Shown here one piece after another: positions 3,958-61,909 of a stretch of 64,000 bases of DNA. The notes under the pieces were generated by a model that worked only from the letters and a program-made list of their open reading frames with translations, did not search any database and was not told where the DNA came from. The position numbers were made by a program, and so were the translations under genes. The first letter of the stretch is position 1, and each line of letters begins with the position of its first letter. Origin of the DNA: a virus; the IMG/VR virus record IMGVR_UViG_3300009103_000015, positions 1 through 64,000 of that record. The stretch is one strand, 5' to 3'.

Positions 3958-5385
3958 TTGTTATCTGACGAATCAATAAATTATTGTCCAGAGTGTCAAA
4001 AATATTTTGATGACCCTGATGAATTAGAAGTTCATAAGAATGTAAAGCATGGTGGAAAACAGAATACTTTGTTTGAGCAATTAGTTCCACAATACTTAGA
4101 CCAACAGAATATTATGATTGAAGATCAAAGTTTTTCATTACCACCTCCTAGAAAACACGCAGATTATAATGAAGCAAAAGCAAATTGGGAAGGTATGTGG
4201 GAAGCTGAAAGAATTAAAGTTTTGAAAGATGCAATGTTAGATACAGAATACTGTGAATATTCTTTCTCTGAATTACCTGAAGATGTTCAGAATAAAATCT
4301 ATTTCACTTTACAGAAATATGCTACCACTAGAAACGCATCTGGTTTTGAAAATGAGCAGAATATAACAGATGATGGAGTAGATTCTACTTCTGTTGATGG
4401 TCAATTTGATGATCATGATTCTGTAAAAGATAACGAGTTTGATTTTGGTGTTCTACCTTTAGCAAGTATTGGATTAGATGTTGCAAAGAGTTTAGAACCA
4501 TCTATTAGACTTAAGGCAAAACAGTATCTGAAACAAGATGAAGCAATTCCATTAGATTGTCCACAATGTAAAAAATTCAGGGGAAGACCACATGAACTTT
4601 ACATTCATCTAAGAACTCAAGGATTTGATAATGAAAATGCAAAACGTATAACAGATAGACAAATTAGTGATTGGAAAAGAGAACAGATAGACAAGATACA
4701 GAAACAAAACTCTGCTGATCAGATTAAACAAAAGAAAGGACTTCTTTCTGGTTTATTTGAATCTAAATCAGATGAATACATAATGCAATGGAATGGATTA
4801 GAAGACTTAGCAAACAGTTTAACTTCTGAAATGTTAGATAATTTATCTTACAAAGAATTACAAAGTCTAATGATTCAGGTAGAAAGAAACATAGAATTGA
4901 TAAAAGATTCATTGAATGAACCAGAGCATTTAGGAATACAGAATGATAACAGTAAAGCAAGATTAATTCTATCACAACTTGAGTTAGGAGTTGCAGAAAT
5001 AGAAAGTAAATTCTTTGATGCTAAGAACAGAGAAGATAAGAGAGAATACTTTTCTCCATTAGAAGATTACATGAATAATCCACGTTATACTTTTGAATCC
5101 ATGTTAAAGTCAGAAATTCTAAGTCCTTATGAAATCAGTAATAGAAATGGAGAGGTTATTTCACAACACGTTGAGACTGAAGAAGAAGTTCAAGAAATAA
5201 TTAACAGATATCAATCAGAATATGTTGAGAAACACTATGGTAGTCAAGATGCGATTATAGTTAGAGATTCAATAGGAAATGATGTAAGTAGAATGTTTAA
5301 GAACGCAATTCAAGAATGGGAAACTACTTCCATAGAAAATATTGATAAGCAATTAGAATATACAGAAAGAGGGTTAGGAATTTGA
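3958..5385 (+). CDS. Acidic modular protein 4 with C2H2-like fingers
   Basis: CPECQKYF..HKNVKH, CPQC..HELYIH; ESKSDE; TTG start. Confidence 0.78.
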   Translation: MLSDESINYCPECQKYFDDPDELEVHKNVKHGGKQNTLFEQLVPQYLDQQNIMIEDQSFSLPPPRKHADYNEAKANWEGMWEAERIKVLKDAMLDTEYCEYSFSELPEDVQNKIYFTLQKYATTRNASGFENEQNITDDGVDSTSVDGQFDDHDSVKDNEFDFGVLPLASIGLDVAKSLEPSIRLKAKQYLKQDEAIPLDCPQCKKFRGRPHELYIHLRTQGFDNENAKRITDRQISDWKREQIDKIQKQNSADQIKQKKGLLSGLFESKSDEYIMQWNGLEDLANSLTSEMLDNLSYKELQSLMIQVERNIELIKDSLNEPEHLGIQNDNSKARLILSQLELGVAEIESKFFDAKNREDKREYFSPLEDYMNNPRYTFESMLKSEILSPYEISNRNGEVISQHVETEEEVQEIINRYQSEYVEKHYGSQDAIIVRDSIGNDVSRMFKNAIQEWETTSIENIDKQLEYTERGLGI

Positions 5386-7829
5386 AAATATCACAAGAAA
5401 AAATGAATGATAGGATAAACTCTTGGAATAGAATGGATTCCAATATAAGATCAGATACTCTAAGACAAGCTGGAGTTCCTGAAGACTTTATTGATCCAGT
5501 AAGAAGATTAGACTTTTGGGAGATAGAATCAAACTATCCAGAGATAGCAGAATGGCTAATAGAAACTCAAGGTTTGTTTAACGAATCTCCATTTGAAAGT
5601 AGTTTAGATGAATGGCAAAAGAAAACTCAAAACATTTCAATCAATGATCCAAATCAGTATTGGGATCTAACAGATATCATTGGAGAAAGAAAAGCAAGTG
5701 AATATCTCTTACCTGAAGCAATAGATGATGAAATAGATCATCATCCATCTGGTGTTGCATTTACTTGCAATCTATGTGGAGAAGATTTAGCTGACGATGA
5801 TAATGGAGATGGGGATATTAGACCTGAAGATAAAGATTCAATATTAGCTCATTTTCGTGACCAACATGGAATAACAGAATCAAAAGCAAGTGAAGATGAC
5901 AAATCAGATTGGGTATTGAATACAGGACTTCCTCATGTTAAGTATGATGCAGATAATCCTATTCCAGAAGATATGTTAGGACAGGCATTCAAACTTGCTA
6001 ATCAAACTGACAGAGAGGGTTTAGAATGTCCACGATGTCATGAAAAAACAATGTTCATGTTAATTCTACCAGAAATGTTATGTTCTAACTGTGGTCTAAG
6101 ATATTCTCTTGAATCTTTTGCAAAAGAAATACTAGGATTCGATGAATTACAAACTGAAGATTTAACTTATGAAGAAATTGTAGAATTAACAAAAGGAATA
6201 CCAATAGATGAGATACCTGAAAAGTTAAGACACGCTGGTATGAAATTACAATTTGATAAAGATTTCAAAGCAGGGGATAATCCTTACGTTGGAAATTGGG
6301 AAAACTTTTCAAAAGAACGTGAATTATATTTACCAGATCATTTTGATTTAGACGAACAGAGATTAGAAGATATTGATGATGGTTATGCAACAGCAGATCT
6401 AATTAAGTGTAATATTTGTGGAATGAAATTTGATTTGGAAGATTCTAATGGAGAAAGAGATGCAATACGTCATTTGAAAGATCATAATATTACAGAATCA
6501 GGTTTCAACTTTGAAGATATAGTAGAAGGTGAACCAATGAAAGAAACAGGTAAACTAAGAGAAAGATTTCCTAGAGGATTTGTAAACTTTAATAAAAAAA
6601 GAGAAGAAGAAATCCAACAAGAAATAAGAGATGCTGGTGGAATAGACGGTATCATTGCAAGATCTCAAGTAAAACCAATAGATTCCTATCAAGATTGGCT
6701 TAGAAAAAATGCAAAGAATAATTCATGGAATAAAATTGGAAGGGAAGGTTCATCACAAATAGACATACTATACGCAGAGAAAGAATCAATAGAGCAAGAA
6801 ATCAATCAATTAGAAAATGATTCAATTAGAATTGGATTGGTTGGAAGCGATCAAGAATTAATAGCAATAGATGATGAGATAATAAAAAAGCAACAAGAGT
6901 TAGAAAATATAGAAAAAGAAATAGATAATTTTGCAGGGGAGACTGATTGGAAACAATTCACTAAGGATTTTTTTTTACATCAAGAAGACGACATACATGA
7001 CTTATTAGAAAGACAGAGAAATAACGATAAGAATCTAAAGGACTACATTAGAAAAGAACAGGTTGAATCAACAGATAGTGAAGAAGAAAAGAAATTCCTA
7101 GATGATTATGGTAAGAATGTAAATTGGGATGAATCTAGTTTTTGGGATTTATTCAAAGACAACACAAAAGAAGTAGATCTATGGGATAATAATGATTACA
7201 ATAAATACAAACAAAAGTTTCTAAAGAAATATCCTAACTCAACAGAAGATGATTTTAAGAAACAAATACAGGGAAGTGATTACTATTCAAAAGAAGAATT
7301 GAATTGGTCAAGACAAAGACCATTGAATGATATTGAAAAAGAAATCTATCTGAAACGTGATGGAGATGATAGATATTTTTGGGAGAGAGATTTAGGAAGT
7401 TCAGATCCTTTCAATCCAAATAAGAAATCAGATGATGAATCAAAATCAAACGAAGGTTGGGAAGTTGAAGAAGAATTGTATCAACAATTATTAGATGGCG
7501 AAATTGGTTGGCATGAATTAACTCCTGAAATGAAAGCTGACATTAACAATTACATTGAAAAAAACAATCTAAGTGTAGAAACAAAATCAACCGAAGGTGG
7601 TTATGGAAGTGGAAAGAATAGACATGGATTCGGTCACAAGAAATGGATGAAAGATGCAGAGATTAATGATAGTATAATTAAATCAGAAGATATGAATAAA
7701 GATGCAATTCCATTAGAAGAATACACATATCATTCTAGAAAAGAAACTGATCATCACAAATCAAATCCAGAGATACGAAGGTTGAAAGATAGAATACGAA
7801 AGTTAGAACGCCAACTTGATGACGAATGA
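5382..7829 (+). CDS. Acidic modular protein 5 with Zn-finger modules and coiled coil
   Basis: CNLC..HFRDQH, CPRC..CSNC, CNIC..HLKDH; KASE, ESKASE, ESFAKE, ESKSNE, ETKSTE. Confidence 0.8.
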   Translation: MKISQEKMNDRINSWNRMDSNIRSDTLRQAGVPEDFIDPVRRLDFWEIESNYPEIAEWLIETQGLFNESPFESSLDEWQKKTQNISINDPNQYWDLTDIIGERKASEYLLPEAIDDEIDHHPSGVAFTCNLCGEDLADDDNGDGDIRPEDKDSILAHFRDQHGITESKASEDDKSDWVLNTGLPHVKYDADNPIPEDMLGQAFKLANQTDREGLECPRCHEKTMFMLILPEMLCSNCGLRYSLESFAKEILGFDELQTEDLTYEEIVELTKGIPIDEIPEKLRHAGMKLQFDKDFKAGDNPYVGNWENFSKERELYLPDHFDLDEQRLEDIDDGYATADLIKCNICGMKFDLEDSNGERDAIRHLKDHNITESGFNFEDIVEGEPMKETGKLRERFPRGFVNFNKKREEEIQQEIRDAGGIDGIIARSQVKPIDSYQDWLRKNAKNNSWNKIGREGSSQIDILYAEKESIEQEINQLENDSIRIGLVGSDQELIAIDDEIIKKQQELENIEKEIDNFAGETDWKQFTKDFFLHQEDDIHDLLERQRNNDKNLKDYIRKEQVESTDSEEEKKFLDDYGKNVNWDESSFWDLFKDNTKEVDLWDNNDYNKYKQKFLKKYPNSTEDDFKKQIQGSDYYSKEELNWSRQRPLNDIEKEIYLKRDGDDRYFWERDLGSSDPFNPNKKSDDESKSNEGWEVEEELYQQLLDGEIGWHELTPEMKADINNYIEKNNLSVETKSTEGGYGSGKNRHGFGHKKWMKDAEINDSIIKSEDMNKDAIPLEEYTYHSRKETDHHKSNPEIRRLKDRIRKLERQLDDE

Positions 7830-9303: not shown

Positions 9304-10320
9304 ATGAAACTTAAAGAAATTCAACTGGAAAGAAATGAAATTACTAACTGGAAAGAATATGTAAAGCGACCAGCTAGAGATGATGACTATGAAACAATGT
9401 TAACAGAATCTTGCAAACTTATGGAAGGCGAAAAATTAATTGGTGTCTATATTGTATTACCTAAAACAAAAGAAACTGAATTATTGAGAGAAGTTGTGAG
9501 AAGAATAAATTATAATAGAAACAAAAGAACCTCTGGTTTGACTACAAATTCAAAGGTATTTGGATATCTTCCTAGAGAGATAATTAGAAAAGATTATTGT
9601 TCTTCTGCTGATTTAGCTACAACGAATGCAAAATATCATGCAGTTATTACACAGTTCGGAGAAACTCTAACTAAGAATTACAAAGAAAGTTGTCCAGAGA
9701 TGTTTGAATATCATAATGGAATAACAAAAGAAAAAATAAAAAAGGAATGGGTTATCAATAATACTCCATACACTTCAGGTATAATTAACAAAGATTCTCA
9801 ACTTAATTATCATTGGGATAGAGGAAACTACAAGAAAGTATTTTCAAACATGGTTGCTTTCAAAAACAAATGTGAAGGTGGACATTTAGCAATACCTGAA
9901 TACAATATTGGTTTAGAAATAGCAGATCTATCATTAACTTTCTTTGCTGGTCAAGAAGTTTTACATGGTGTCACTCCATTCAGAAATAATCAAGGTGGTT
10001 ATAGATACACTCTAGTTTATTACACAATGAATCAGATGTGGAAATGTGAAGATGTTTCAAAAGAAGTTGCTAGAATAAGAGAAAGAAAAACTCAACGTGA
10101 AAAGAACAGAGTGTTAAGATTACAGGGAAAGTTATCTGAAGAAGATGATCCAATAGGACAGCTTAGACAGAAAGTGAAAGATCCAAAACAATATATGAAT
10201 TATAATATATTTGCAGAATTAGGTATAGATAGAAAGTATCTAGGAGTTCCATTCACAAGGCTTCCAAAATACATACAAGAAAAATTAGTTCATTACAAAC
10301 AGAAGGAAAGAAAAGAATAA
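9304..10320 (+). CDS. TET/JBP-like 2-oxoglutarate/Fe(II) dioxygenase
   Basis: HxD (YHWDRGN), GG.L.IPEY, distal His (VLHGVTP) and 2OG-binding Arg (YRYTLVYY); adjacent to ParB as in viral TET/JBP loci. Confidence 0.8.
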   Translation: MKLKEIQLERNEITNWKEYVKRPARDDDYETMLTESCKLMEGEKLIGVYIVLPKTKETELLREVVRRINYNRNKRTSGLTTNSKVFGYLPREIIRKDYCSSADLATTNAKYHAVITQFGETLTKNYKESCPEMFEYHNGITKEKIKKEWVINNTPYTSGIINKDSQLNYHWDRGNYKKVFSNMVAFKNKCEGGHLAIPEYNIGLEIADLSLTFFAGQEVLHGVTPFRNNQGGYRYTLVYYTMNQMWKCEDVSKEVARIRERKTQREKNRVLRLQGKLSEEDDPIGQLRQKVKDPKQYMNYNIFAELGIDRKYLGVPFTRLPKYIQEKLVHYKQKERKE

Positions 10321-11191: not shown

Positions 11192-11291
11192 GAGATGTGG
11201 TAATGAAATGGATAATCTAAGTGCCTGTCACTTGAGATGTTCAAACTGTGGTGTTGAATACGATTGTTCAGATAAGGGAACTACATGGTAA
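11157..11291 (+). CDS. 44-aa Nitrosopumilus-like CxxCG Zn-ribbon microprotein (not in ORF track)
   Basis: MSEENVKKETCERCGNEMDNLSACHLRCSNCGVEYDCSDKGTTW; recalled as resembling a thaumarchaeal small-protein family. Confidence 0.65.
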   Translation: MSEENVKKETCERCGNEMDNLSACHLRCSNCGVEYDCSDKGTTW

Positions 11292-11842
11292 AAATAATTG
11301 CTATCGGTGGAGTAGCTGGAACTGGAAAGACAAAGATAATTCAAGACTTTATCAAGAAATCAAAAGATTGGAAGGTATCAAAGCCTGAAAAGACATTGGA
11401 TTCTATTTACAGTGAAAAAATGAATTGTTTTGTTCTAGGAAAATATGATCCATTCTATGAAGGTGAAGGTTATGCACAGGGAACTGATAGATTAAGTATG
11501 TCAGTTCAACCACACGCTAAAAAATTCTTCAAGAATCTAAATTCAAACTGTATTTTTGAAGGAGATAGGTTATACAATCAAAAGATGTTAGAGTTTCTAC
11601 TAAATGAAACCAATCACGAATGTTTATTCCTAATTCTAGACTGTAAATCAGATATGCTAATTCAAAGATACAGAAAAAGAAATAGTGAACAGTCTGCTAA
11701 ATTCATTCAAGGTAGATTTACAAAGTATAACAACATAATACGCAACATGAAATCAAACATAACAATAGTAAAGAATGAAACAGAATCAGATTCCAAGAAG
11801 ATTTCTAAGATAATCAACAACTTTATATTGAATGTCAACTAA
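11285..11842 (+). CDS. P-loop nucleotide kinase of the viral DNA-hypermodification type (5-hmU DNA kinase-like)
   Basis: Walker A GGVAGTGKT; LGKY....GTDRLSMSVQP; IFEGDRL. Confidence 0.7.
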   Translation: MVKIIAIGGVAGTGKTKIIQDFIKKSKDWKVSKPEKTLDSIYSEKMNCFVLGKYDPFYEGEGYAQGTDRLSMSVQPHAKKFFKNLNSNCIFEGDRLYNQKMLEFLLNETNHECLFLILDCKSDMLIQRYRKRNSEQSAKFIQGRFTKYNNIIRNMKSNITIVKNETESDSKKISKIINNFILNVN

Positions 11843-11914: not shown

Positions 11915-12802
11915 TTATTCTAGATTAGAATTATATTTTTCCATTAAATGTTCAACAGAAGCATTAATTATTTCTTCTATTGAAACTTTGTTTGGCATTA
12001 AACCGTTTAGACCACCAAACCCATCTGTATTGTAAATCTGTCTTAACATTTCTCTATCTGCAATAGGTATATCATCGTAGATAACTGGAGCAAAAGGATT
12101 CATTATTGGAAACATCAAACTTGGTAAATCATTTCCAAACTCTTGATCTTCTATATAATGACCAACTCCTAATGCGTGAGCATATTCATGTCTAATTATT
12201 TTTTGAATTGCTTCAGTTGGCATTGGTTTTGCTGTAAGATCAATCTTGTATTCTTCTTTCTTTTCATCACTACATCCTATACAAAAAGTAAAGTTCTGAC
12301 CAATTTCTATACTATCTAGATAAACCATAATGAAAGCCCATTGATGTTTAGAATGAGAAAAGTCAATAGAAGTATAACCTAGTGCTTTTTGATTTGGAAT
12401 GTGTTGACCTGTATTCTCTTTTGCAAATTCTATGAAAATACTACATTCAGAAAAATCTAATACATTCTTATCAAAATGGTTTTCATAATAGACTAATTTC
12501 ATTGGAATATCCCAACCACCTTCTTTATAGAATCTAGTATCTTGAGAATAACTATCCATAGCATCACTCCATTCTTGAACTGTTAGAATAGTCATAGTTA
12601 AGATTCCATCATAGAATCTATCTTGAATTTCTGGAGCTGGTTCCATGATACAGGTCATAGGATTATCTTTATGATATATTCCAGAACCCATAGTTTCTAT
12701 GAAATCTGCGTGGGCTATACCTAATGGTAAAGTGGTCACAGTAGTAGATAGAATGAGTAGAGTAATCAAGAAAATAGAAAGAATCTTCATCATTATTATC
12801 AA
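11915..12802 (-). CDS. Secreted metzincin (matrixin/M10-like) metallopeptidase
   Basis: N-terminal signal peptide ending AHA; HEYAHALGVGH; Met-turn SLMFP; only convincing minus-strand gene. Confidence 0.8.
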   Translation of the reverse strand: MIIMMKILSIFLITLLILSTTVTTLPLGIAHADFIETMGSGIYHKDNPMTCIMEPAPEIQDRFYDGILTMTILTVQEWSDAMDSYSQDTRFYKEGGWDIPMKLVYYENHFDKNVLDFSECSIFIEFAKENTGQHIPNQKALGYTSIDFSHSKHQWAFIMVYLDSIEIGQNFTFCIGCSDEKKEEYKIDLTAKPMPTEAIQKIIRHEYAHALGVGHYIEDQEFGNDLPSLMFPIMNPFAPVIYDDIPIADREMLRQIYNTDGFGGLNGLMPNKVSIEEIINASVEHLMEKYNSNLE

Positions 12803-12865
12803 GGATTTCTAGTTTTTATGTATAAAATTCTAAAACATTATATTCAAATAACAATTATCACTAGT

Positions 12866-13040
12866 ATGGGATTAGGAAAAGCGTTGTTTACTGAAGTTTT
12901 GCAACAGTCTTGTCATTCAGATGGTTTTCTAGCCACTAATCCCAAACACAGTTCTGTGCTTGAACTTGTTTACTTGGAAGTTGGGCAGACTGCTTTCTGA
13001 GACACATCGCAGTTTGGGGAATGTTCAACTTCCATAGTTT
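12866..13040 (+). ncRNA. Candidate structured ncRNA (three consecutive hairpins)
   Basis: Stems 12867-12875/12936-12944, ~12944-12954/12962-12971, and 12975-12987/13022-13034 (two G-U pairs) with inner 12988-12993/13009-13014. Raised GC, TATA-like box at ~12834, T-rich 3' end. Confidence 0.6.
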
Positions 13041-13061
13041 TATTAATTCCAATGACCTAGA

Positions 13062-13367
13062 ATGAACGTGTCAAAAGAAGAAAAAAGCGTAGATGAATTG
13101 GAAGAAATATCAGAAGAGGATTTAGAATTAGATACAATTCTGAAATTATTTGATGAGAAGAGAACAACTAAAGTTTTCAATGCAATAGATTTAGCTTTGA
13201 ATGAAGTTGTGACAGAATTGAAACCAACTCCATACGAAGTAGAAGTTGCATTGAAATTAATAGATTTGAAACTAAAAGATTTAGAAACTCGTTCTGCAAT
13301 AGCTGGTATGCAAGAAACATACAAACCAGAAGATGTAAAAGAAGAACATGAAATGATGTATAAATGA
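13062..13367 (+). CDS. Hypothetical acidic protein
   Basis: 101-aa ORF in operon. Confidence 0.6.
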   Translation: MNVSKEEKSVDELEEISEEDLELDTILKLFDEKRTTKVFNAIDLALNEVVTELKPTPYEVEVALKLIDLKLKDLETRSAIAGMQETYKPEDVKEEHEMMYK

Positions 13368-13630
13368 CAAACACAGATAAGAAAAAAGATCACATCTTTG
13401 TTCCAAATCCAAATCCAGAATGGAATATTAAGATAGCCAATAAAGATGCTGTTGCAGAAAATTATGGAAGTAAGATAGGAAGGGAACAGTATGATGATGT
13501 AGAAACAGGTGCAGTTGAATGTATTCAGAAATCATGTAATAAATTTCCACAGACTGTTTGTCAAGAATGTTTTGAATATGTTTGTGAAGATCACCTTTAT
13601 AGGCATCCAAACTGTAATCAAGGTAAATGA
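13364..13630 (+). CDS. B-box/AN1-like Zn-finger protein
   Basis: CIQKSC....CQEC...VCEDH...H.NC. Confidence 0.55.
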   Translation: MTNTDKKKDHIFVPNPNPEWNIKIANKDAVAENYGSKIGREQYDDVETGAVECIQKSCNKFPQTVCQECFEYVCEDHLYRHPNCNQGK

Positions 13631-14012: not shown

Positions 14013-14435
14013 ATGTTGCATCCTGAAAAGAAAGAAAAGAAAAAAGAAGTTGATGATAGAAGGGATATGGTAAATAAAATGTTGATAAAGGGAGCAACTC
14101 AATTAGAAATATCAAACCAACTAAAAATTTCCATTAGCACAGTTGAACGTGATGTTAAAGTAATAAAAGAAAATGCTAGTAAGTGGTTAGATGATTTAGC
14201 AAAGAAAGGTATTGTCCATGAATGGAAACAGGGATTAGAAAAGTTAAGAGAAACTGAAAGAAAACTAAATCAAATATTGCAAGAAAAGGAATTATCAAGA
14301 GATGATACACTTAGAATTTTAAAACAAAGAGATGAAAACATAGCATTACAAACTCAATTCTTAATGGATGGTCCAGCACTTCACGCCATAAAATCTCACA
14401 TGAATGATATAGGTGAAATTGATGACCACTTATAG
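14013..14435 (+). CDS. terS: Terminase small subunit (HTH)
   Basis: HTH ATQLEISNQLKISISTVERDV plus helical C-terminus; immediately upstream of TerL. Confidence 0.65.
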   Translation: MLHPEKKEKKKEVDDRRDMVNKMLIKGATQLEISNQLKISISTVERDVKVIKENASKWLDDLAKKGIVHEWKQGLEKLRETERKLNQILQEKELSRDDTLRILKQRDENIALQTQFLMDGPALHAIKSHMNDIGEIDDHL

Positions 14436-16206
14436 AAGTAAGATTCAAACCTTCGTTAAAACAAATACGAATTGGTTAGATGACGAAGAAGAACTTCCAG
14501 AATTACCAACTGATATTAAACAATGGATTAACGTAGCAAGACCTTTTGTTGAAGGTCAACAGATGAGAAGAAGTTTTCTAACGATTCCATTTTGGGAAGC
14601 AATCTATGAAGATAAGACACAAGACATAATGGTTGTCGCTGGAAGACAGGTTTACAAATCTACATTCGCAACAGATATTCTAGCAAATTATACTACCAGT
14701 AGAAACAATATTTCAGTTTGTTATGTAAGTTATGATGATGTTAACAGAAACGCTTTCAGTAATCAGAAATTAAGAGTTGGAACGTTTCTAACAAATCCTA
14801 TTCTACAAAGATTTCCACGTTCTGGAAAGAGTGCTGGAAACGTAGGAGAAGTTCCACTGAAAAATAATTCTACAATATATGTGACAACAGATCATTGGGG
14901 TTATAGACACGTAGAAGGAAAGTCACTTCAGGTTTGTATTCTAGACGAAGCACAATATCATGATATACAATTCTTACCTAAATTGCAAGAAGCTATGACT
15001 GCAACGAAAGGAAGATTATACATTCTAGGAATTGGTGGAGAAGCTGGTTCTCCATACGAAAGATTATGGAATGATACTGATCAAAGAGAATGGATTTACG
15101 AAGATGAGAATTGGAGAGATAAGTTGAAGTTTGATAAACATGGGTTAGTGATTGGAGATTATATGAAAGATATTTTGAAAGGTAAATGGAAATCAAATAA
15201 ACCTCACAATAAACTCTTTCATGGTTATCATATTCCACAATACATAGTTCCAACAATACCTTTGACAATAGATGATGCTGTTAAGAAATACAAACTACAT
15301 CCAAAGTTCTCGATAGAATGGAAGAAGAAACATAATCCAACTTCAATATTCAATTCTCATGTTCTTGGTGGATTCTTCCACGCTTTGAGAAGACCTGTCA
15401 CTAGGGAAATGGTAGAAGCTTGCATGGAATCTGATAAAGTATTGTTAACTCCAAGCCAGATAGCTCAAATCAAAGACAAACAACAAAACAAAGTTAAGAT
15501 TGCATTAGGAGTTGACTTTGGTAGCAGTCCTTCAAAAAGTGCAACAGTAATCTGTATTCTAATTCATTGGAGAGAAACTGATAGATATCAAATGGCATTT
15601 ATGGAAAAAAGACCAGCAGAAAATCAGATGGATCAAGCACAATACATAACAAAGTTGTTTGGTAAATGTAAATGTGATATAGGATTCGGAGACTTAGGAT
15701 ATGGAGCAATTCAAGTTAAAACAATTCAAGATGGTGGAGCAGATAGAACTTCTGGAGAAATATTTGAGGGAGTGACATCTCAAAGATTTGTAGGTTGTAG
15801 AACCGTTGGAGATGAAAGTAAACCTATGATGAGATATGATAAGAAAGTAGATGAACATGGAGAGGTCACAGGTATGATTAAACTAGACAAGACAACTATA
15901 ATCCAAGAGTTCATAGATTTGTTAGAAACTCAAGTTCCAGATAAGAAAGAACCTGAAAATGAAAAGCTAGCAAAAATGAAGTTAAGAATACCTAGTAAGA
16001 AGGATTGGGAAACAGATTGGTTGATTGATGAATTTTGTGAGATAACTCGTAGAGATCTAGATGAAATGGGAGATGTCGAGACAGGTGTTGATAAACGCAT
16101 GAAAGTCAGGAAACTCTTCAACCATCCTAGAGATTCTACAATGTCTGTGATTTATGCAATGAAAGCTCTAGAATTTACGAGTGAATGGCATTGGGTTTCA
16201 GCATAA
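14413..16206 (+). CDS. terL: Terminase large subunit
   Basis: Walker A AGRQVYKS, Walker B VCILDEAQ, RNase H-like ALGVDFG, GFGDLGYG, C-terminal HPRD. Confidence 0.85.
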   Translation: MKLMTTYRSKIQTFVKTNTNWLDDEEELPELPTDIKQWINVARPFVEGQQMRRSFLTIPFWEAIYEDKTQDIMVVAGRQVYKSTFATDILANYTTSRNNISVCYVSYDDVNRNAFSNQKLRVGTFLTNPILQRFPRSGKSAGNVGEVPLKNNSTIYVTTDHWGYRHVEGKSLQVCILDEAQYHDIQFLPKLQEAMTATKGRLYILGIGGEAGSPYERLWNDTDQREWIYEDENWRDKLKFDKHGLVIGDYMKDILKGKWKSNKPHNKLFHGYHIPQYIVPTIPLTIDDAVKKYKLHPKFSIEWKKKHNPTSIFNSHVLGGFFHALRRPVTREMVEACMESDKVLLTPSQIAQIKDKQQNKVKIALGVDFGSSPSKSATVICILIHWRETDRYQMAFMEKRPAENQMDQAQYITKLFGKCKCDIGFGDLGYGAIQVKTIQDGGADRTSGEIFEGVTSQRFVGCRTVGDESKPMMRYDKKVDEHGEVTGMIKLDKTTIIQEFIDLLETQVPDKKEPENEKLAKMKLRIPSKKDWETDWLIDEFCEITRRDLDEMGDVETGVDKRMKVRKLFNHPRDSTMSVIYAMKALEFTSEWHWVSA

Positions 16207-21452: not shown

Positions 21453-21704
21453 ATGGATCCATTAATTATGGTAGCAGGAGCATCAGTAATTGGTGCTGGA
21501 CTGAATACATTGAGAGGATATTTGCACAGCAAAGAACCTTACAGTGCTAAGAAATTAGCTGGTTCTATAATCATTGCAACATTTGCTTCTTTGGCTTTAA
21601 GTCAAAGCATCATTGTTGACGGATTATCTGAATCAGGAATTATTCTTGTAGGTCTAGTCACAGGTTTTACTGCTGATTATGCTATAACTAAAGCAAAGAA
21701 ATAA
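21453..21704 (+). CDS. Three-TM holin-like protein
   Basis: 83 aa, three hydrophobic segments, basic C-terminus (KAKK), upstream of a peptidase. Confidence 0.55.
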   Translation: MDPLIMVAGASVIGAGLNTLRGYLHSKEPYSAKKLAGSIIIATFASLALSQSIIVDGLSESGIILVGLVTGFTADYAITKAKK

Positions 21705-41553: not shown

Positions 41554-44304
41554 ATGACTTTGAAAAAACGTGTCACAGAATACTTTGATGATGAAGACCT
41601 GAAAAGTATTAACTCTAAAGAAGTGAATCCAGATGAGAAAGAATGTGAGAGTTGTGGTTTCAAAACAGCAGATAATGAAGAATTTGAAGACCATTTACAA
41701 TCTCATAAGGATATTTCAGATGAGTTTTGGAATAACAATTATAATAATTTTGTAAATTATCAACTAGCAAATCTTAAGAAGAAAACAGGAACTGAAAGTG
41801 TTGATCTTCTCATGGGAAAGATTTCAGCACAAGAAGGTAAGAAAATCAAAGGAACTCTAGCTTATGCTGGTGTTTCATTAAACAACAGATTATATCTTCC
41901 AGAACAATTAGCAAAAGGCGATGGTCAAACATTACCACTTATAGTAAATCATGCTTCAACTTCAGGTGCTGAAGGAGAACTTCATAGACTTCCAGATACA
42001 TTTAGAGAAGGATTAGTAAATGGAAAAGAAATGAAAGTAGGAACTGTTAAACTTAATTGGGATCCAGAAGCATTAACATTGTATTATTCAGGAGAAGTAG
42101 ATGATGAGTTTTTCCAAAAAGAAATTGGAGAAGCTGATATGGCAGTATCTCTAGGAATGTATTATGATGCAAACTCGCCTCAAGTTTGTGATAAAGAATG
42201 TTATACAGTCATAAAAGGTGGAGAATTTTCTGAAGTTTCATTGGTCTATCATGCAGGTTTTCCAATAGCAACTATTGAAGCAAATGAAGCTGTTCTAAGA
42301 AAGAAAGGTATGGAAGCATTAAAGTTTTCAAGAACTGAAGATCCATTACCTTGTTCAAAGAAATCTGAAGAAGCACTCGGTCCTCACAGTCCAGAATATG
42401 ATCAGGTCATCAATGATCCTAATGAAAATCCAACAACTTCAGGTAGAGGAGTAGGAAATATTCAACCTGAAACTAGAGTAGCTCAAAGAAGAATGGATGA
42501 AAATGAAATTGGAGTCACATCATCTAATGATTTGGAAAAATCAAAAGAAGAAGTTTCTGGTCCACCAACTTCTACAACACCAACAGTTATTCGTGAAAAA
42601 AATACATATAAAGAGAGTTTAAATAGTAAGAACAAGATTATGTCTGACGAAATTGACAAAAACGAAATATCAGCCGAACCAAAAGCTGAAAACACAGAAA
42701 CCGAAGAAGAAGAAATAAAATCTAAAGATGCAGAATCACAAGCATCTGGAACTTTTTCTGATGGTGGCGGTGCTCAATGCGAAGACCAAGGTAAAATTTG
42801 GGATGCAGAGACCGAGAAATGTGTTGATGTAAACGGTTCAGTTCAAAAGGAAGTCCCTTCTGGCGTTAAGACTAACGTTTCAGATGGTGGCAAGTCAGGA
42901 GAAAACAGAAGAGTTAGACCAACATCTTATCGTAGAAGTTCTGTTCCAAACGCAGATATTGCTTCAGAAAAACGAAGAGTAAAAGAATATTACAAGAAAT
43001 TGGATAGACTTGAAGCTCTACGTGGTATGAAAGTATCAGAAGCAAGAATCAAAGCAAAAGAACAATACTTGAAAGAAAAACGATTAGATAGTTTAATTCG
43101 TGGTGCTAAAGAAAGTGCAAGACCAAAAGCTATTGTAAGTCGCAAGACAGCAAAAGCTGGTGAAGCATTTGGCAAAGTAAAAGCTGACGAGAAAGAAGTC
43201 ACTGGTCCAGCAAGATGGTATCAAGCCATCAAGAACGAAGAGAACGTTCCAAATTCATTTATCTGGCACGTTAACAAACAAGGAATCTTCGAGAACAGTG
43301 ATCAACGTTTCATCAAATCTTACGATGCTAACGAAAACACCCAATATGCTCCTTTGACATCAGACCAAAAGAAAGCTTCCGAAGCAGTGACTGGTCCAGC
43401 AGGTAATGATTTCATGAGAATCATGTCCGAGCAGGTTCTAGTATTGCCAAACGGAAAAGTAGTCACACCAATTCGTCAATTCTGTGAAACCAAAGTGTTG
43501 CCAACAGGCACAAAAGAAGCATTCTTCTATGACTTTGGTGCAGTAGGATTCAGCGACATCACTGAAGATGGTTCAACAGTTGTTGGAGAATCTGCAGTTG
43601 TTGTTAGATCTGCTGGTGGTCCAGCAGGTGCTAGAGGAACAAAACTCATTCTAGGTTATACTCAAATTGAGGAAAGCCCAATCGATTTGATTGCAAGTGC
43701 AAACAGATCATTCGCATTAGAATCAGTAAACGATGAATCAAAAGAAGTTGTAAACGTATCATACAACACAGATTCAGGTTCCGCAGGCGATGCTACAAAC
43801 AGAAAAGCAGTTGGTGGTGGTTCAAAAGCAAACAGATGGGTATCTCACAGTGGTTCACAAATCACAGCAGATGCATCTGGTCTTGGAAACTTAACTTTCG
43901 CTGGATTAGTTTCAGCAAAAGGAGTTATCGAAGATGAAGGTCTTGATCCTAGCAACTTAGTCACATACACAACAGGAAAAGCAATTCGTGATCTTGTATT
44001 TGATCCAGATCTCGATAGTTTCATATCCTTTAGTCGTCCAGCAATCATTACAGAAGCAACTGTCGAAAGAATCGCAGGAACTAATGTAGTAAGATCTTCT
44101 GCTTTAGCAAGTGGATCACAATCTGGATCTAGCAGATCCGTAATGTTTGTTCCAAACATTGCATTCGGCTTGATTTCAGGAAGAGATCTAACTATGGAAG
44201 CACAAAGAAGAAATGAGCTCCAATCAATTTTCTTGACTGGAACACAGAGGATTGCAGGATTCACAAAGAACGTGGAAGCAACCTGTCGTATATCTCACTT
44301 ATAG
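41554..44304 (+). CDS. Fused C2H2 finger - prohead protease - scaffold - HK97-fold major capsid protein
   Basis: CESC..HLQSH; protease-like motifs GVSLNNRLY, LIVNH, VSLG, FSEVSLV; charged linker; C-terminal ~306 aa with ERIAGTNVV and LISGRDLTMEAQR...TQRIAG. Confidence 0.8.
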   Translation: MTLKKRVTEYFDDEDLKSINSKEVNPDEKECESCGFKTADNEEFEDHLQSHKDISDEFWNNNYNNFVNYQLANLKKKTGTESVDLLMGKISAQEGKKIKGTLAYAGVSLNNRLYLPEQLAKGDGQTLPLIVNHASTSGAEGELHRLPDTFREGLVNGKEMKVGTVKLNWDPEALTLYYSGEVDDEFFQKEIGEADMAVSLGMYYDANSPQVCDKECYTVIKGGEFSEVSLVYHAGFPIATIEANEAVLRKKGMEALKFSRTEDPLPCSKKSEEALGPHSPEYDQVINDPNENPTTSGRGVGNIQPETRVAQRRMDENEIGVTSSNDLEKSKEEVSGPPTSTTPTVIREKNTYKESLNSKNKIMSDEIDKNEISAEPKAENTETEEEEIKSKDAESQASGTFSDGGGAQCEDQGKIWDAETEKCVDVNGSVQKEVPSGVKTNVSDGGKSGENRRVRPTSYRRSSVPNADIASEKRRVKEYYKKLDRLEALRGMKVSEARIKAKEQYLKEKRLDSLIRGAKESARPKAIVSRKTAKAGEAFGKVKADEKEVTGPARWYQAIKNEENVPNSFIWHVNKQGIFENSDQRFIKSYDANENTQYAPLTSDQKKASEAVTGPAGNDFMRIMSEQVLVLPNGKVVTPIRQFCETKVLPTGTKEAFFYDFGAVGFSDITEDGSTVVGESAVVVRSAGGPAGARGTKLILGYTQIEESPIDLIASANRSFALESVNDESKEVVNVSYNTDSGSAGDATNRKAVGGGSKANRWVSHSGSQITADASGLGNLTFAGLVSAKGVIEDEGLDPSNLVTYTTGKAIRDLVFDPDLDSFISFSRPAIITEATVERIAGTNVVRSSALASGSQSGSSRSVMFVPNIAFGLISGRDLTMEAQRRNELQSIFLTGTQRIAGFTKNVEATCRISHL

Positions 44305-60899: not shown

Positions 60900-61138
60900 G
60901 CTGGTTTCCTAGCGATTGGATAGCCAAAGAGAATCTCAAAAAACAGAAGAAAGAAGCAAAGCCTAAGAAAGCAAATTTTGAAGTTAAGCATAGAACCTCT
61001 ACTGAACTAAATAGCGATAAGATGAGATGGAAATACCATTGTCCAAATTTATGTCAGCAGAAACCTAATGGATCAAAAGGCAAAAAAACTTTTGATGGAA
61101 AAATTTGTAAAGCTTGCAAATATGAAAAAAAGTCCTAA
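60896..61138 (+). CDS. Small basic Zn-binding protein
   Basis: CPNLC...CKAC. Confidence 0.5.
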   Translation: MSWFPSDWIAKENLKKQKKEAKPKKANFEVKHRTSTELNSDKMRWKYHCPNLCQQKPNGSKGKKTFDGKICKACKYEKKS

Positions 61139-61139
61139 G

Positions 61140-61315
61140 TTTTATTTACTTAATTTTTACCATTTTTTCTTAAGTAATAGTTTGACAATTTAGGAATTTA
61201 TTAATTTACTAATTACTTAATTTATTACTTAAGAAATTAAGTATTACTTAATCGGTTGAATTTACGGAGGGATTTACGGAGTGGTCTTATATCTTACGAC
61301 CACGTAGTAGTTTTT
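61140..61315. promoter_or_regulatory. AT-rich iterated control region (origin or early promoter candidate)
   Basis: TTACTTAA x4 plus inverted copies; tandem ATTTACGGAG x2; GTGGTC/GACCAC flanking a TATA-like box. Confidence 0.5.
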
Positions 61316-61909
61316 ATGGCTAAGAAAATTACCATCCAGAATGCTTCCACGAAAACTTCAAGAAAACACGCCAAGAAAAGTGTTTTCGGTGGGAGAACAA
61401 TCGGTGATATTCTACTAGAAGCACAGCACAAAAAATCTAATGTCGTTGTCGCTTTTGATAAGCCAACTGAAAGTATCTCTGATACTCAAAGTTGTAATGT
61501 CAAACTCGTAGTAGAAAATAAATCATCTTCCAAAGTATTTTTTGAAAAGGCACAACAAGAAAAGCAGAAAGAAAAACTTAGACAAAAAGAATTGACTAAG
61601 TTTGCTAACGAACTGAAAAGAAAATCAATTCAGTTCCAAGCAATGAAAAGAAAACTTGCTAAGAAGAAATCACAAGAAGCAAGAAAACTTTTACAAGAAA
61701 CTTGTGAGAACGAAGCACGAAACCTAACCGTTCTATTTATTGCAACAAAGAACGTCGTATCAAGTGTTTCAAAAGTTGACAATCCATTTGATGTTGTTCA
61801 ACTAAGTGAAGTCGATGGTTTGATAGAAAACCAAAAAGAAAAGAAAGACGTTAAGAAAGTAGATAACTGTTTTACAGAAGTTGAACTTCTTAACGCTGGA
61901 GTTATCTAA
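61316..61909 (+). CDS. Lys-rich basic coiled-coil protein
   Basis: Start re-assigned to MAKKITIQ, ~25 nt after the TATA-like box. Confidence 0.6.
   Translation: MAKKITIQNASTKTSRKHAKKSVFGGRTIGDILLEAQHKKSNVVVAFDKPTESISDTQSCNVKLVVENKSSSKVFFEKAQQEKQKEKLRQKELTKFANELKRKSIQFQAMKRKLAKKKSQEARKLLQETCENEARNLTVLFIATKNVVSSVSKVDNPFDVVQLSEVDGLIENQKEKKDVKKVDNCFTEVELLNAGVI

Follow-up and report, generated by a model that had tools for sequence, protein, structure and literature searches.

A candidate structured non-coding RNA at the head of the gene run leading to the terminase genes of an archaeal tailed virus

The ocean is rich in viruses of ammonia-oxidising archaea, most of which are uncultured and known by little else than their protein genes. 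To our knowledge, the literature describes no structured non-coding RNA from any of them and only few from archaeal viruses as a whole. Full-text searches of the literature returned papers on thaumarchaeal proviruses and on archaeal tailed viruses, none of which describes an RNA such as the one considered here. Among the systems that invite comparison, the phi29-type pRNA (RF00044) is a two-domain folded RNA encoded by a tailed dsDNA virus, and its rings rely on complementary loops between molecules. Riboswitches and other cis-acting leaders place a conserved multi-helix junction, a variable hairpin and a T-rich stretch in front of a gene, and the expression platform of a riboswitch has a conserved pairing of the mutually exclusive kind. 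The archaeal C/D box sRNAs are 50–70 nt RNAs in which a C box (RUGAUGA) and a D box (CUGA) form a kink-turn at the ends, viral CRISPR-repeat mimics resemble a repeat of the host and often occur in several copies, and Rfam further contains orphan phage and marine RNAs such as the IMES motifs.

The locus analysed here lies at positions 12866–13040 of the window, by which we mean the whole stretch of 64,000 nucleotides of viral DNA that was analysed. The window covers the initial 64 kb of a tailed-virus record that is 77,876 bp long and has terminal repeats. In the reading that we favour, and that we hold to be reasonably probable, the element would be a gene for a folded non-coding RNA of ∼175 nt, with inferred ends, on the + strand of a tailed virus of Nitrosopumilaceae. 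The evidence consists of the fold, a homologue, the alignment z-score and compensatory pairs. Judged mainly from compensatory change and a conserved promoter, the element is a credible new orphan viral structured RNA of narrow distribution.

Genomic setting and predicted fold

The large terminase of the virus has hundreds of relatives, the named ones coming from Nitrosarchaeum and Nitrosopumilus, and 23 of the 25 terminase-family loci in prokaryote genomes are located in Nitrosopumilaceae or other Nitrososphaerota. This makes the host a marine ammonia-oxidising archaeon. Two terminase relatives (L083 and L105) come from contigs that had been assigned to a Flavobacteriaceae MAG and to a Neomarinimicrobiota MAG, placements that are most likely binning errors rather than signs of bacterial hosts.

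The element is harboured by an intergenic gap of 259 nt (12803–13061). On its left, a divergent gene on the − strand (11915–12802) encodes a 295-amino-acid protein with a hydrophobic N-terminus, which has no Pfam or PHROG match and falls into no family. On its right, a + strand gene (13062–13367) encodes an acidic protein of 101 amino acids, also with no Pfam or PHROG match. The left neighbour has 91% identity to its counterpart in the related viral contig L004 and 52% identity to that in L003, a locus in which it is not followed by the RNA. The right neighbour gives tblastn matches only in the window and in the L004 contig, i.e. in the RNA-bearing clade among the fetched loci. From 13062 a long run of + strand genes leads to a helix-turn-helix gene, which is a candidate for the small terminase by its position, and then to the large terminase gene (14413–16206), such that the element is ∼1.4 kb upstream of the latter.

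Some further features of this region were seen. A P-loop protein (11285–11842) matches a PHROG small terminase (5.7e-16) yet has a Pfam AAA_18 kinase-like domain, and the protein at 9304–10320 matches a PHROG queuine tRNA-ribosyltransferase yet a Pfam TET/JBP dioxygenase; both PHROG names look misleading. Between the left gene and the RNA, L004 contains an extra 34-codon ORF (2646–2750) with two CxxC-like pairs resembling a mini zinc ribbon and with its own TATA-like box. This ORF is missing from the window, and in L003 its place is taken by a 137-amino-acid ORF with a similar zinc-ribbon N-terminus. In the more distant locus L008, a gene-free stretch (5230–5450) upstream of the helix-turn-helix and terminase genes contains several GTTAAC-like palindromes; it may be a protein-binding (pac-like) region and is unrelated to the RNA.

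An original prediction, made from the sequence alone, had described a GC-elevated segment with three hairpin domains and with G–U pairs that favour the + strand, and the element agrees with this description. Its GC content is 0.37–0.43, compared with 0.21–0.25 immediately upstream. RNAfold gives −54.0 kcal/mol for the + strand (z = −3.37), a value equalled by none of 200 dinucleotide shuffles, while the − strand folds less well (−42.8 kcal/mol, z = −2.37). The six G–U pairs of the element in the window correspond to A–C mismatches on the other strand.

All helix coordinates and pairings were verified by reading the sequence and by scripts. The 5′ domain (79 nt, 12867–12944) consists of the 9 bp stem H1 (12867–75 / 12936–44), which closes three hairpins: P1a (12883–87 / 12901–05), P1b (12907–10 / 12919–22) and P1c (12923–26 / 12931–34). 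It is followed by hairpin H2 (12945–12970), in which an outer stem of 4 bp and an inner stem of 5 bp are separated by one bulged C (strands 12945–48 and 12950–54 / 12962–66 and 12967–70). The long hairpin H3 (12975–13034) has an outer stem of 13 bp (12975–87 / 13022–34), an inner stem of 6 bp (12988–93 / 13009–14), a 15 nt loop and a 7 nt bulge on the 3′ side (13015–21). H1 had been proposed to continue through three further helices into a single long hairpin. The 9 bp stem itself stands, and the relative supports a four-way junction instead of the long hairpin: two of the three extension helices (12876–80/12925–29 and 12891–95/12916–20) are lost there. P1a and P1c are present in both independent minimum free energy folds (window and L004), and the whole junction is present in the RNAalifold consensus. 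Readings of H3 as a hammerhead, an H/ACA RNA, a bulge–helix–bulge or a pseudoknot were dropped by eye, either for absent defining motifs or for steric reasons.

In a GC-adjusted scan of the whole genome the element has a z-score of −3.1, which is in the top 0.3% of scanned segments, and about six other loci in the same genome score as well or better. Fold stability alone is thus not decisive for the element. The segments with GC-adjusted z-scores of −3.3 to −3.7 are 43471–43715 (+), within the capsid gene, 21491–21700 (+), and 61076–61320 (+), where the GC content is only 19–26% and a long AT-rich inverted repeat is probable; genome positions 72346–72520 (+) and 76967–77211 (−) are in the same range.

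Conservation of the fold and distribution of the element

The comparison rests on two full nucleotide sequences, that of the window and that of the one full homologue (L004, positions 2791–2965), which is situated between the same two genes. The terminase of the L004 virus is 92% identical at the protein level and the neighbourhood is ∼80% identical at the DNA level. On its own, the homologue folds into the same layout of H1, three hairpins, H2 and H3, with z = −4.09 on the + strand and −1.93 on the − strand. Using a plain MAFFT alignment of the pair, RNAalifold yields −40.05 kcal/mol compared with −16.4 ± 3.8 for 300 column shuffles (z = −6.1), and the pair, which is 73% identical, has a structure conservation index of 0.74. 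Among the 45 base pairs that are homologous none is broken; 37 are the same, three show one-sided changes and five show double changes. H1 accounts for one of the double changes, and H2 and the inner H3 stem for two each.

Partial information comes from further variants. P0121, P0122 and P0124 are gene-caller peptides from three other assemblies that were found by a protein search with the 44-codon frame starting at AUG 12866, and back-translation gives the nucleotides of P0122 and P0124 in part only. A relative in a public sequencing run (X4) has 12866–12945 almost unchanged, 12946–13007 replaced by 67 unalignable letters and a match that resumes at 13008; the change G12876T listed for it is also carried by P0122. 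A near-identical strain is present in public runs as well.

The rate at which the 5′ domain evolves is about as low as that of the coding sequence next to it. One G–C pair of H1 is replaced by A–U through a double change in L004 and a G–C pair becomes G–U in P0122. In P1a a U–G pair becomes U–A in L004, the same type of change occurs in P1c in P0122 and P0124, and P1b is invariant across the variants. All definite changes in the 5′ domain of P0122 and P0124 are either in an unpaired linker or keep the pairing (U–G to U–A, G–C to G–U). A run of 39 nt that is identical in the window and L004 was considered as a sign of special constraint and rejected, as stretches of identity reach 80 nt in the flanking genes.

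In H2, both double compensatory changes relative to L004 are located in the inner stem, the outer stem persists with its register shifted and the 7 nt loop sequence is unchanged. Two inner pairs of H2 are broken in their original register in P0122 and P0124, where a 4 bp helix shifted by 1 nt is still possible. In H3, two pairs of the outer stem have changed on one side relative to L004, two pairs of the inner stem show double compensatory changes, and the 3′ bulge is invariant. The minimum free energy fold of L004 prefers another inner helix for H3 that makes use of this bulge. P0124 keeps the 3′ strand of H3 and has extra bases in the 5′ strand, and P0121 implies a change of G12983 to T, the partner base of which is unreadable from the peptide. 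H2 and H3 are only 68–69% identical, below the 74% of third codon positions in the terminase gene, and the stem changes all keep pairing. Their helices thus survive in a fast-changing sequence.

The element is seemingly confined to a very small clade, with about four closely related variants so far. A covariance model built from the window/L004 pair (R1) found nothing credible in 73 terminase-related viral loci, and no further homologue came from blastn or nhmmer. Scans of viral and metagenome contig collections with exact core patterns returned only one relative, the known L004; the matches L079 and L081 are 21-mers that agree by chance and belong to a coding region from an unrelated organism. 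A phage collection gave AT-rich chance matches only. Model R1 has no match at E values up to 0.1 in 151 Nitrosopumilaceae genomes and a single weak match (E = 0.5) in five further ones, while a DNA search of 401 genomes of the host order gave only chance matches of 19–29 nt. The distant relatives L003 and L007, which keep neighbouring genes, lack the element, and the syntenic intergenic regions of L007 and L008 fold with z-scores of only −1.6 to −2.0 and with a different layout.

Transcription unit and alternative explanations

A TATA-like box is located at 12834–12846 (+), and a spacer of 21 nt separates it from the AUG at 12866. AT-rich TATA-like boxes are found 20–25 nt before the ATG of about 15 genes of the virus, as leaderless archaeal mRNAs would lead one to expect, and the box of gene 18614 is nearly identical to that of the element. 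The window and L004 share both box and spacing, P0124 agrees at every position that could be determined, and X4 has no listed difference across 12831–12849; the spacer between box and element is only 60% identical. Downstream, a T-rich stretch (13039–13049) follows H3, a possible termination signal for the RNA that is also the TATA-like box of the next gene. Box and T-rich stretch had both been noted in the original prediction, which proposed a separately transcribed viral RNA. Of that proposal, the archaeal-type promoter is upheld, being conserved and at the usual distance, and the transcript itself is a putative one. A metatranscriptome run with this virus, from the study to which the genome is probably owed, has a contig of the region only at 13207–13467 (261 nt, without differences), which spans the end of gene 13062–13367 and the start of gene 13364–13630; it hints at transcription there but could be DNA carry-over. 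RNA-library run X6 has no contig over the element and, consisting of assembled contigs, is uninformative in either direction. Scans for sigma-70 promoters and intrinsic terminators are uninformative for an archaeal virus.

According to our favoured reading, the host RNA polymerase would start ∼21 nt past the TATA box, as for the leaderless protein genes of the virus, and termination would occur within or close to the T-rich stretch, which also serves as the promoter of the next gene. The product would be an RNA of two parts, a slowly evolving four-way junction of 79 nt and two 3′ hairpins that change fast in sequence while keeping their helices.

The most serious alternative, although we regard it as unlikely, is that the element is the cis-acting 5′ leader of the gene block that runs from 13062 to the terminase genes, with the junction sensing a ligand or protein and with H3 and the T-rich stretch setting the read-through, as in a riboswitch, an attenuator or an antitermination RNA. 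The element ends only ∼25 nt before the next + strand gene, and a more conserved multi-helix 5′ domain followed by faster 3′ hairpins that retain their structure also speaks for such a leader. In L004 there is no run of at least four T residues after H3, and read-through into the next gene is therefore possible. However, a TATA-like box separate from that of the element precedes the start of the next gene by the usual 20–22 nt. This is clearest in L004, where a near-consensus box directly follows H3, 20 nt before the ATG. In the window, the spacing from the box at 13039–48 suggests that the leaderless GTG at 13068 and not the ATG at 13062 is the start; the L004 homologue of the acidic protein also begins with Met-Ser. 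No Shine–Dalgarno-like sequence precedes the start of this gene in the window or in L004, which fits a leaderless mRNA, and such an mRNA cannot carry a 195 nt leader. Together with the separate box, this favours two transcription units, and a unit of its own for the candidate RNA is the best reading of these signals. The alternative pairing between 13012–18 and 12941–47 that had been predicted exists in the window (7 bp), but only five of its seven pairs are left in L004, and the idea of a switch is unsupported, as the pairing is not conserved in the relative. Lastly, no riboswitch or leader family of Rfam matches the element, and archaeal termination is independent of hairpins.

A leaderless gene for a protein of ∼35–66 residues, either alone or in addition to an RNA role and with the RNA structure being secondary, is considerably less probable. 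The ATG is placed exactly at the leaderless-gene distance from the TATA box, the frame stays open for 40 (P0122), 44 (window), 62 (L004) and at least 66 codons (P0124), and gene callers have called it in other assemblies. Against this, the shared in-frame part comprises only ∼34 codons, a length that would be free of stops by chance in ∼12% of cases (a rough estimate from ∼6% stop codons at this composition). The tails are unrelated, and even P0122 and P0124, which belong to the same 90% cluster, are put out of frame by a single 1 nt difference. Substitutions in the shared part are nearly all non-synonymous, with at most about one silent change in 80 nt in the X4-type relative, and the frame in which conserved nucleotides of H3 and of the region near the 5′ end are read differs between the window and L004. 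The variable frame lengths, the unrelated tails and the mostly non-synonymous changes argue against a conserved protein; conservation of the 44-residue frame through synonymous changes that break the stems, which the original prediction had named as the outcome that would speak against it, was not found. In addition, the start codon is paired within H1, the frame has no Pfam or PHROG match and the five compensatory pair changes would be left unexplained.

It is very improbable that the element acts as DNA, be it as a pac site, a replication origin, a protein-binding site or an attachment site copied from a host tRNA gene. Its intergenic position between divergent promoters, ∼1 kb upstream of the helix-turn-helix and large terminase genes, would suit such a site, and the arms of its helices are also inverted repeats in the DNA. 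The six G–U pairs would nevertheless be mismatches on the other strand, the − strand folds worse in both genomes, and changes such as G–U to G–C and U–G to U–A are typical of RNA helices. There are no iterons or repeated boxes at the locus and no match to host genomes beyond chance; the attachment-site or tRNA-fragment idea was rejected, with the host matches of 19–29 nt being inside unrelated ORFs and with no tRNA nearby.

That a functionless fold arose by chance in a fast-evolving spacer, as might be suspected from the equally stable segments elsewhere in the genome and the restriction to a very small clade, is hardly to be entertained in view of the alignment-shuffling z-score, the conserved promoter and the fact that all eight of the pairs that vary relative to L004 are still paired.

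Candidate roles and comparison with known systems

The RNA of our favoured reading would act in trans as a protein-binding partner or scaffold rather than via long base pairing with a target. A search of the viral genome for antisense targets gave nothing of at least 13 nt, and 11-mers are at the level of shuffled sequences. With up to three mismatches allowed, the 24-nucleotide core has one match in 301 Nitrosopumilaceae genomes, which equals chance. The guide-like role that had been suggested for the RNA thus finds no support, as complementarity to the viral genome and to the 301 host-family genomes does not rise above chance. Capture of a host RNA gene likewise finds no support, with no homologue among the host-lineage genomes searched (151 by model, 401 by DNA). 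The lack of target complementarity and the placement of the host matches in unrelated ORFs leave the guide, antisense, captured host RNA and attachment-site ideas unsupported.

Most likely, the candidate RNA would act in trans through its shape, with a protein partner. This view follows from the location of the conserved parts in and around helices together with the lack of target complementarity. By its position at the head of the gene block that leads to the terminase genes, the RNA might take part in late expression or assembly. The packaging-associated role that the original prediction considered is a mere possibility drawn from the position ∼1.4 kb upstream of the large terminase gene. 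More specifically, the RNA might be the working part of a viral ribonucleoprotein, either as an assembly or packaging cofactor in the manner of phi29 pRNA or as a decoy that captures a host protein; this is a speculative proposal to which we give little credence. If true, viruses of Nitrososphaerota would thereby gain their first described functional structured RNA. In more general terms, the use of RNA-level tools by these viruses would become evident from a conserved folded RNA under an archaeal promoter of its own, and such an RNA would also offer a small, concrete target for probing, for pull-downs and for the mapping of metatranscriptomes. The distribution of the element in one small clade tempers the present weight of the finding.

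Archaeal guide RNAs (C/D and H/ACA) and viral CRISPR-repeat mimics are, like the candidate, small archaeal or viral non-coding RNAs with their own promoters. UGAUGA does not occur in 12866–13040, and weak matches to C/D models are found only outside the element, in the flanking genes. From reading the sequence, the element has no two-sided pseudouridylation pocket of the H/ACA type. For a CRISPR-repeat mimic, there are no repeats at the locus, and nothing core-like beyond chance is found in 301–401 host-lineage genomes.

The 5′ domain is reminiscent of the tRNA cloverleaf in its 79 nt length and in a closing stem around three hairpins that form a four-way junction. Unlike in a tRNA, whose acceptor stem has 7 bp, the closing stem has 9 bp, the loops are 13, 8 and 4 nt long, sizes whose order does not fit the D, anticodon and T arms, and there is no T-loop sequence. 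In agreement with the original prediction that the element is not a tRNA, a scan of the whole window with ARAGORN gives neither a tRNA nor a tmRNA and cmscan finds no tRNA at E values up to 10.

With riboswitches and cis-acting leaders the element has in common that a multi-helix junction of higher conservation is followed by a variable hairpin and by T-rich sequence just before a gene. It differs from them in matching no Rfam class, in an alternative pairing that is not conserved, and in a next gene that seemingly has its own promoter and a leaderless start.

The resemblance to phi29-type pRNA concerns a virus-encoded folded RNA of ∼170–175 nt with its own promoter and two domains in a tailed dsDNA virus. 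In contrast, the covariance model of pRNA has no match in 12600–13300 at E values up to 10, and the host of the element is an archaeon. Between the loops of H2 and H3 a complementarity of only 4 bp exists in the window and in L004, which is invariant in the two sequences.

From the orphan phage and marine RNAs of Rfam the element differs in that it matches none of the 4227 families on the + strand even at E values up to 10 in the Infernal search that had been proposed, and in that only about four close variants of it are known so far. Like the IMES motifs and their kin, it presents itself as a conserved structure in marine viral DNA that is brought out by comparative analysis.
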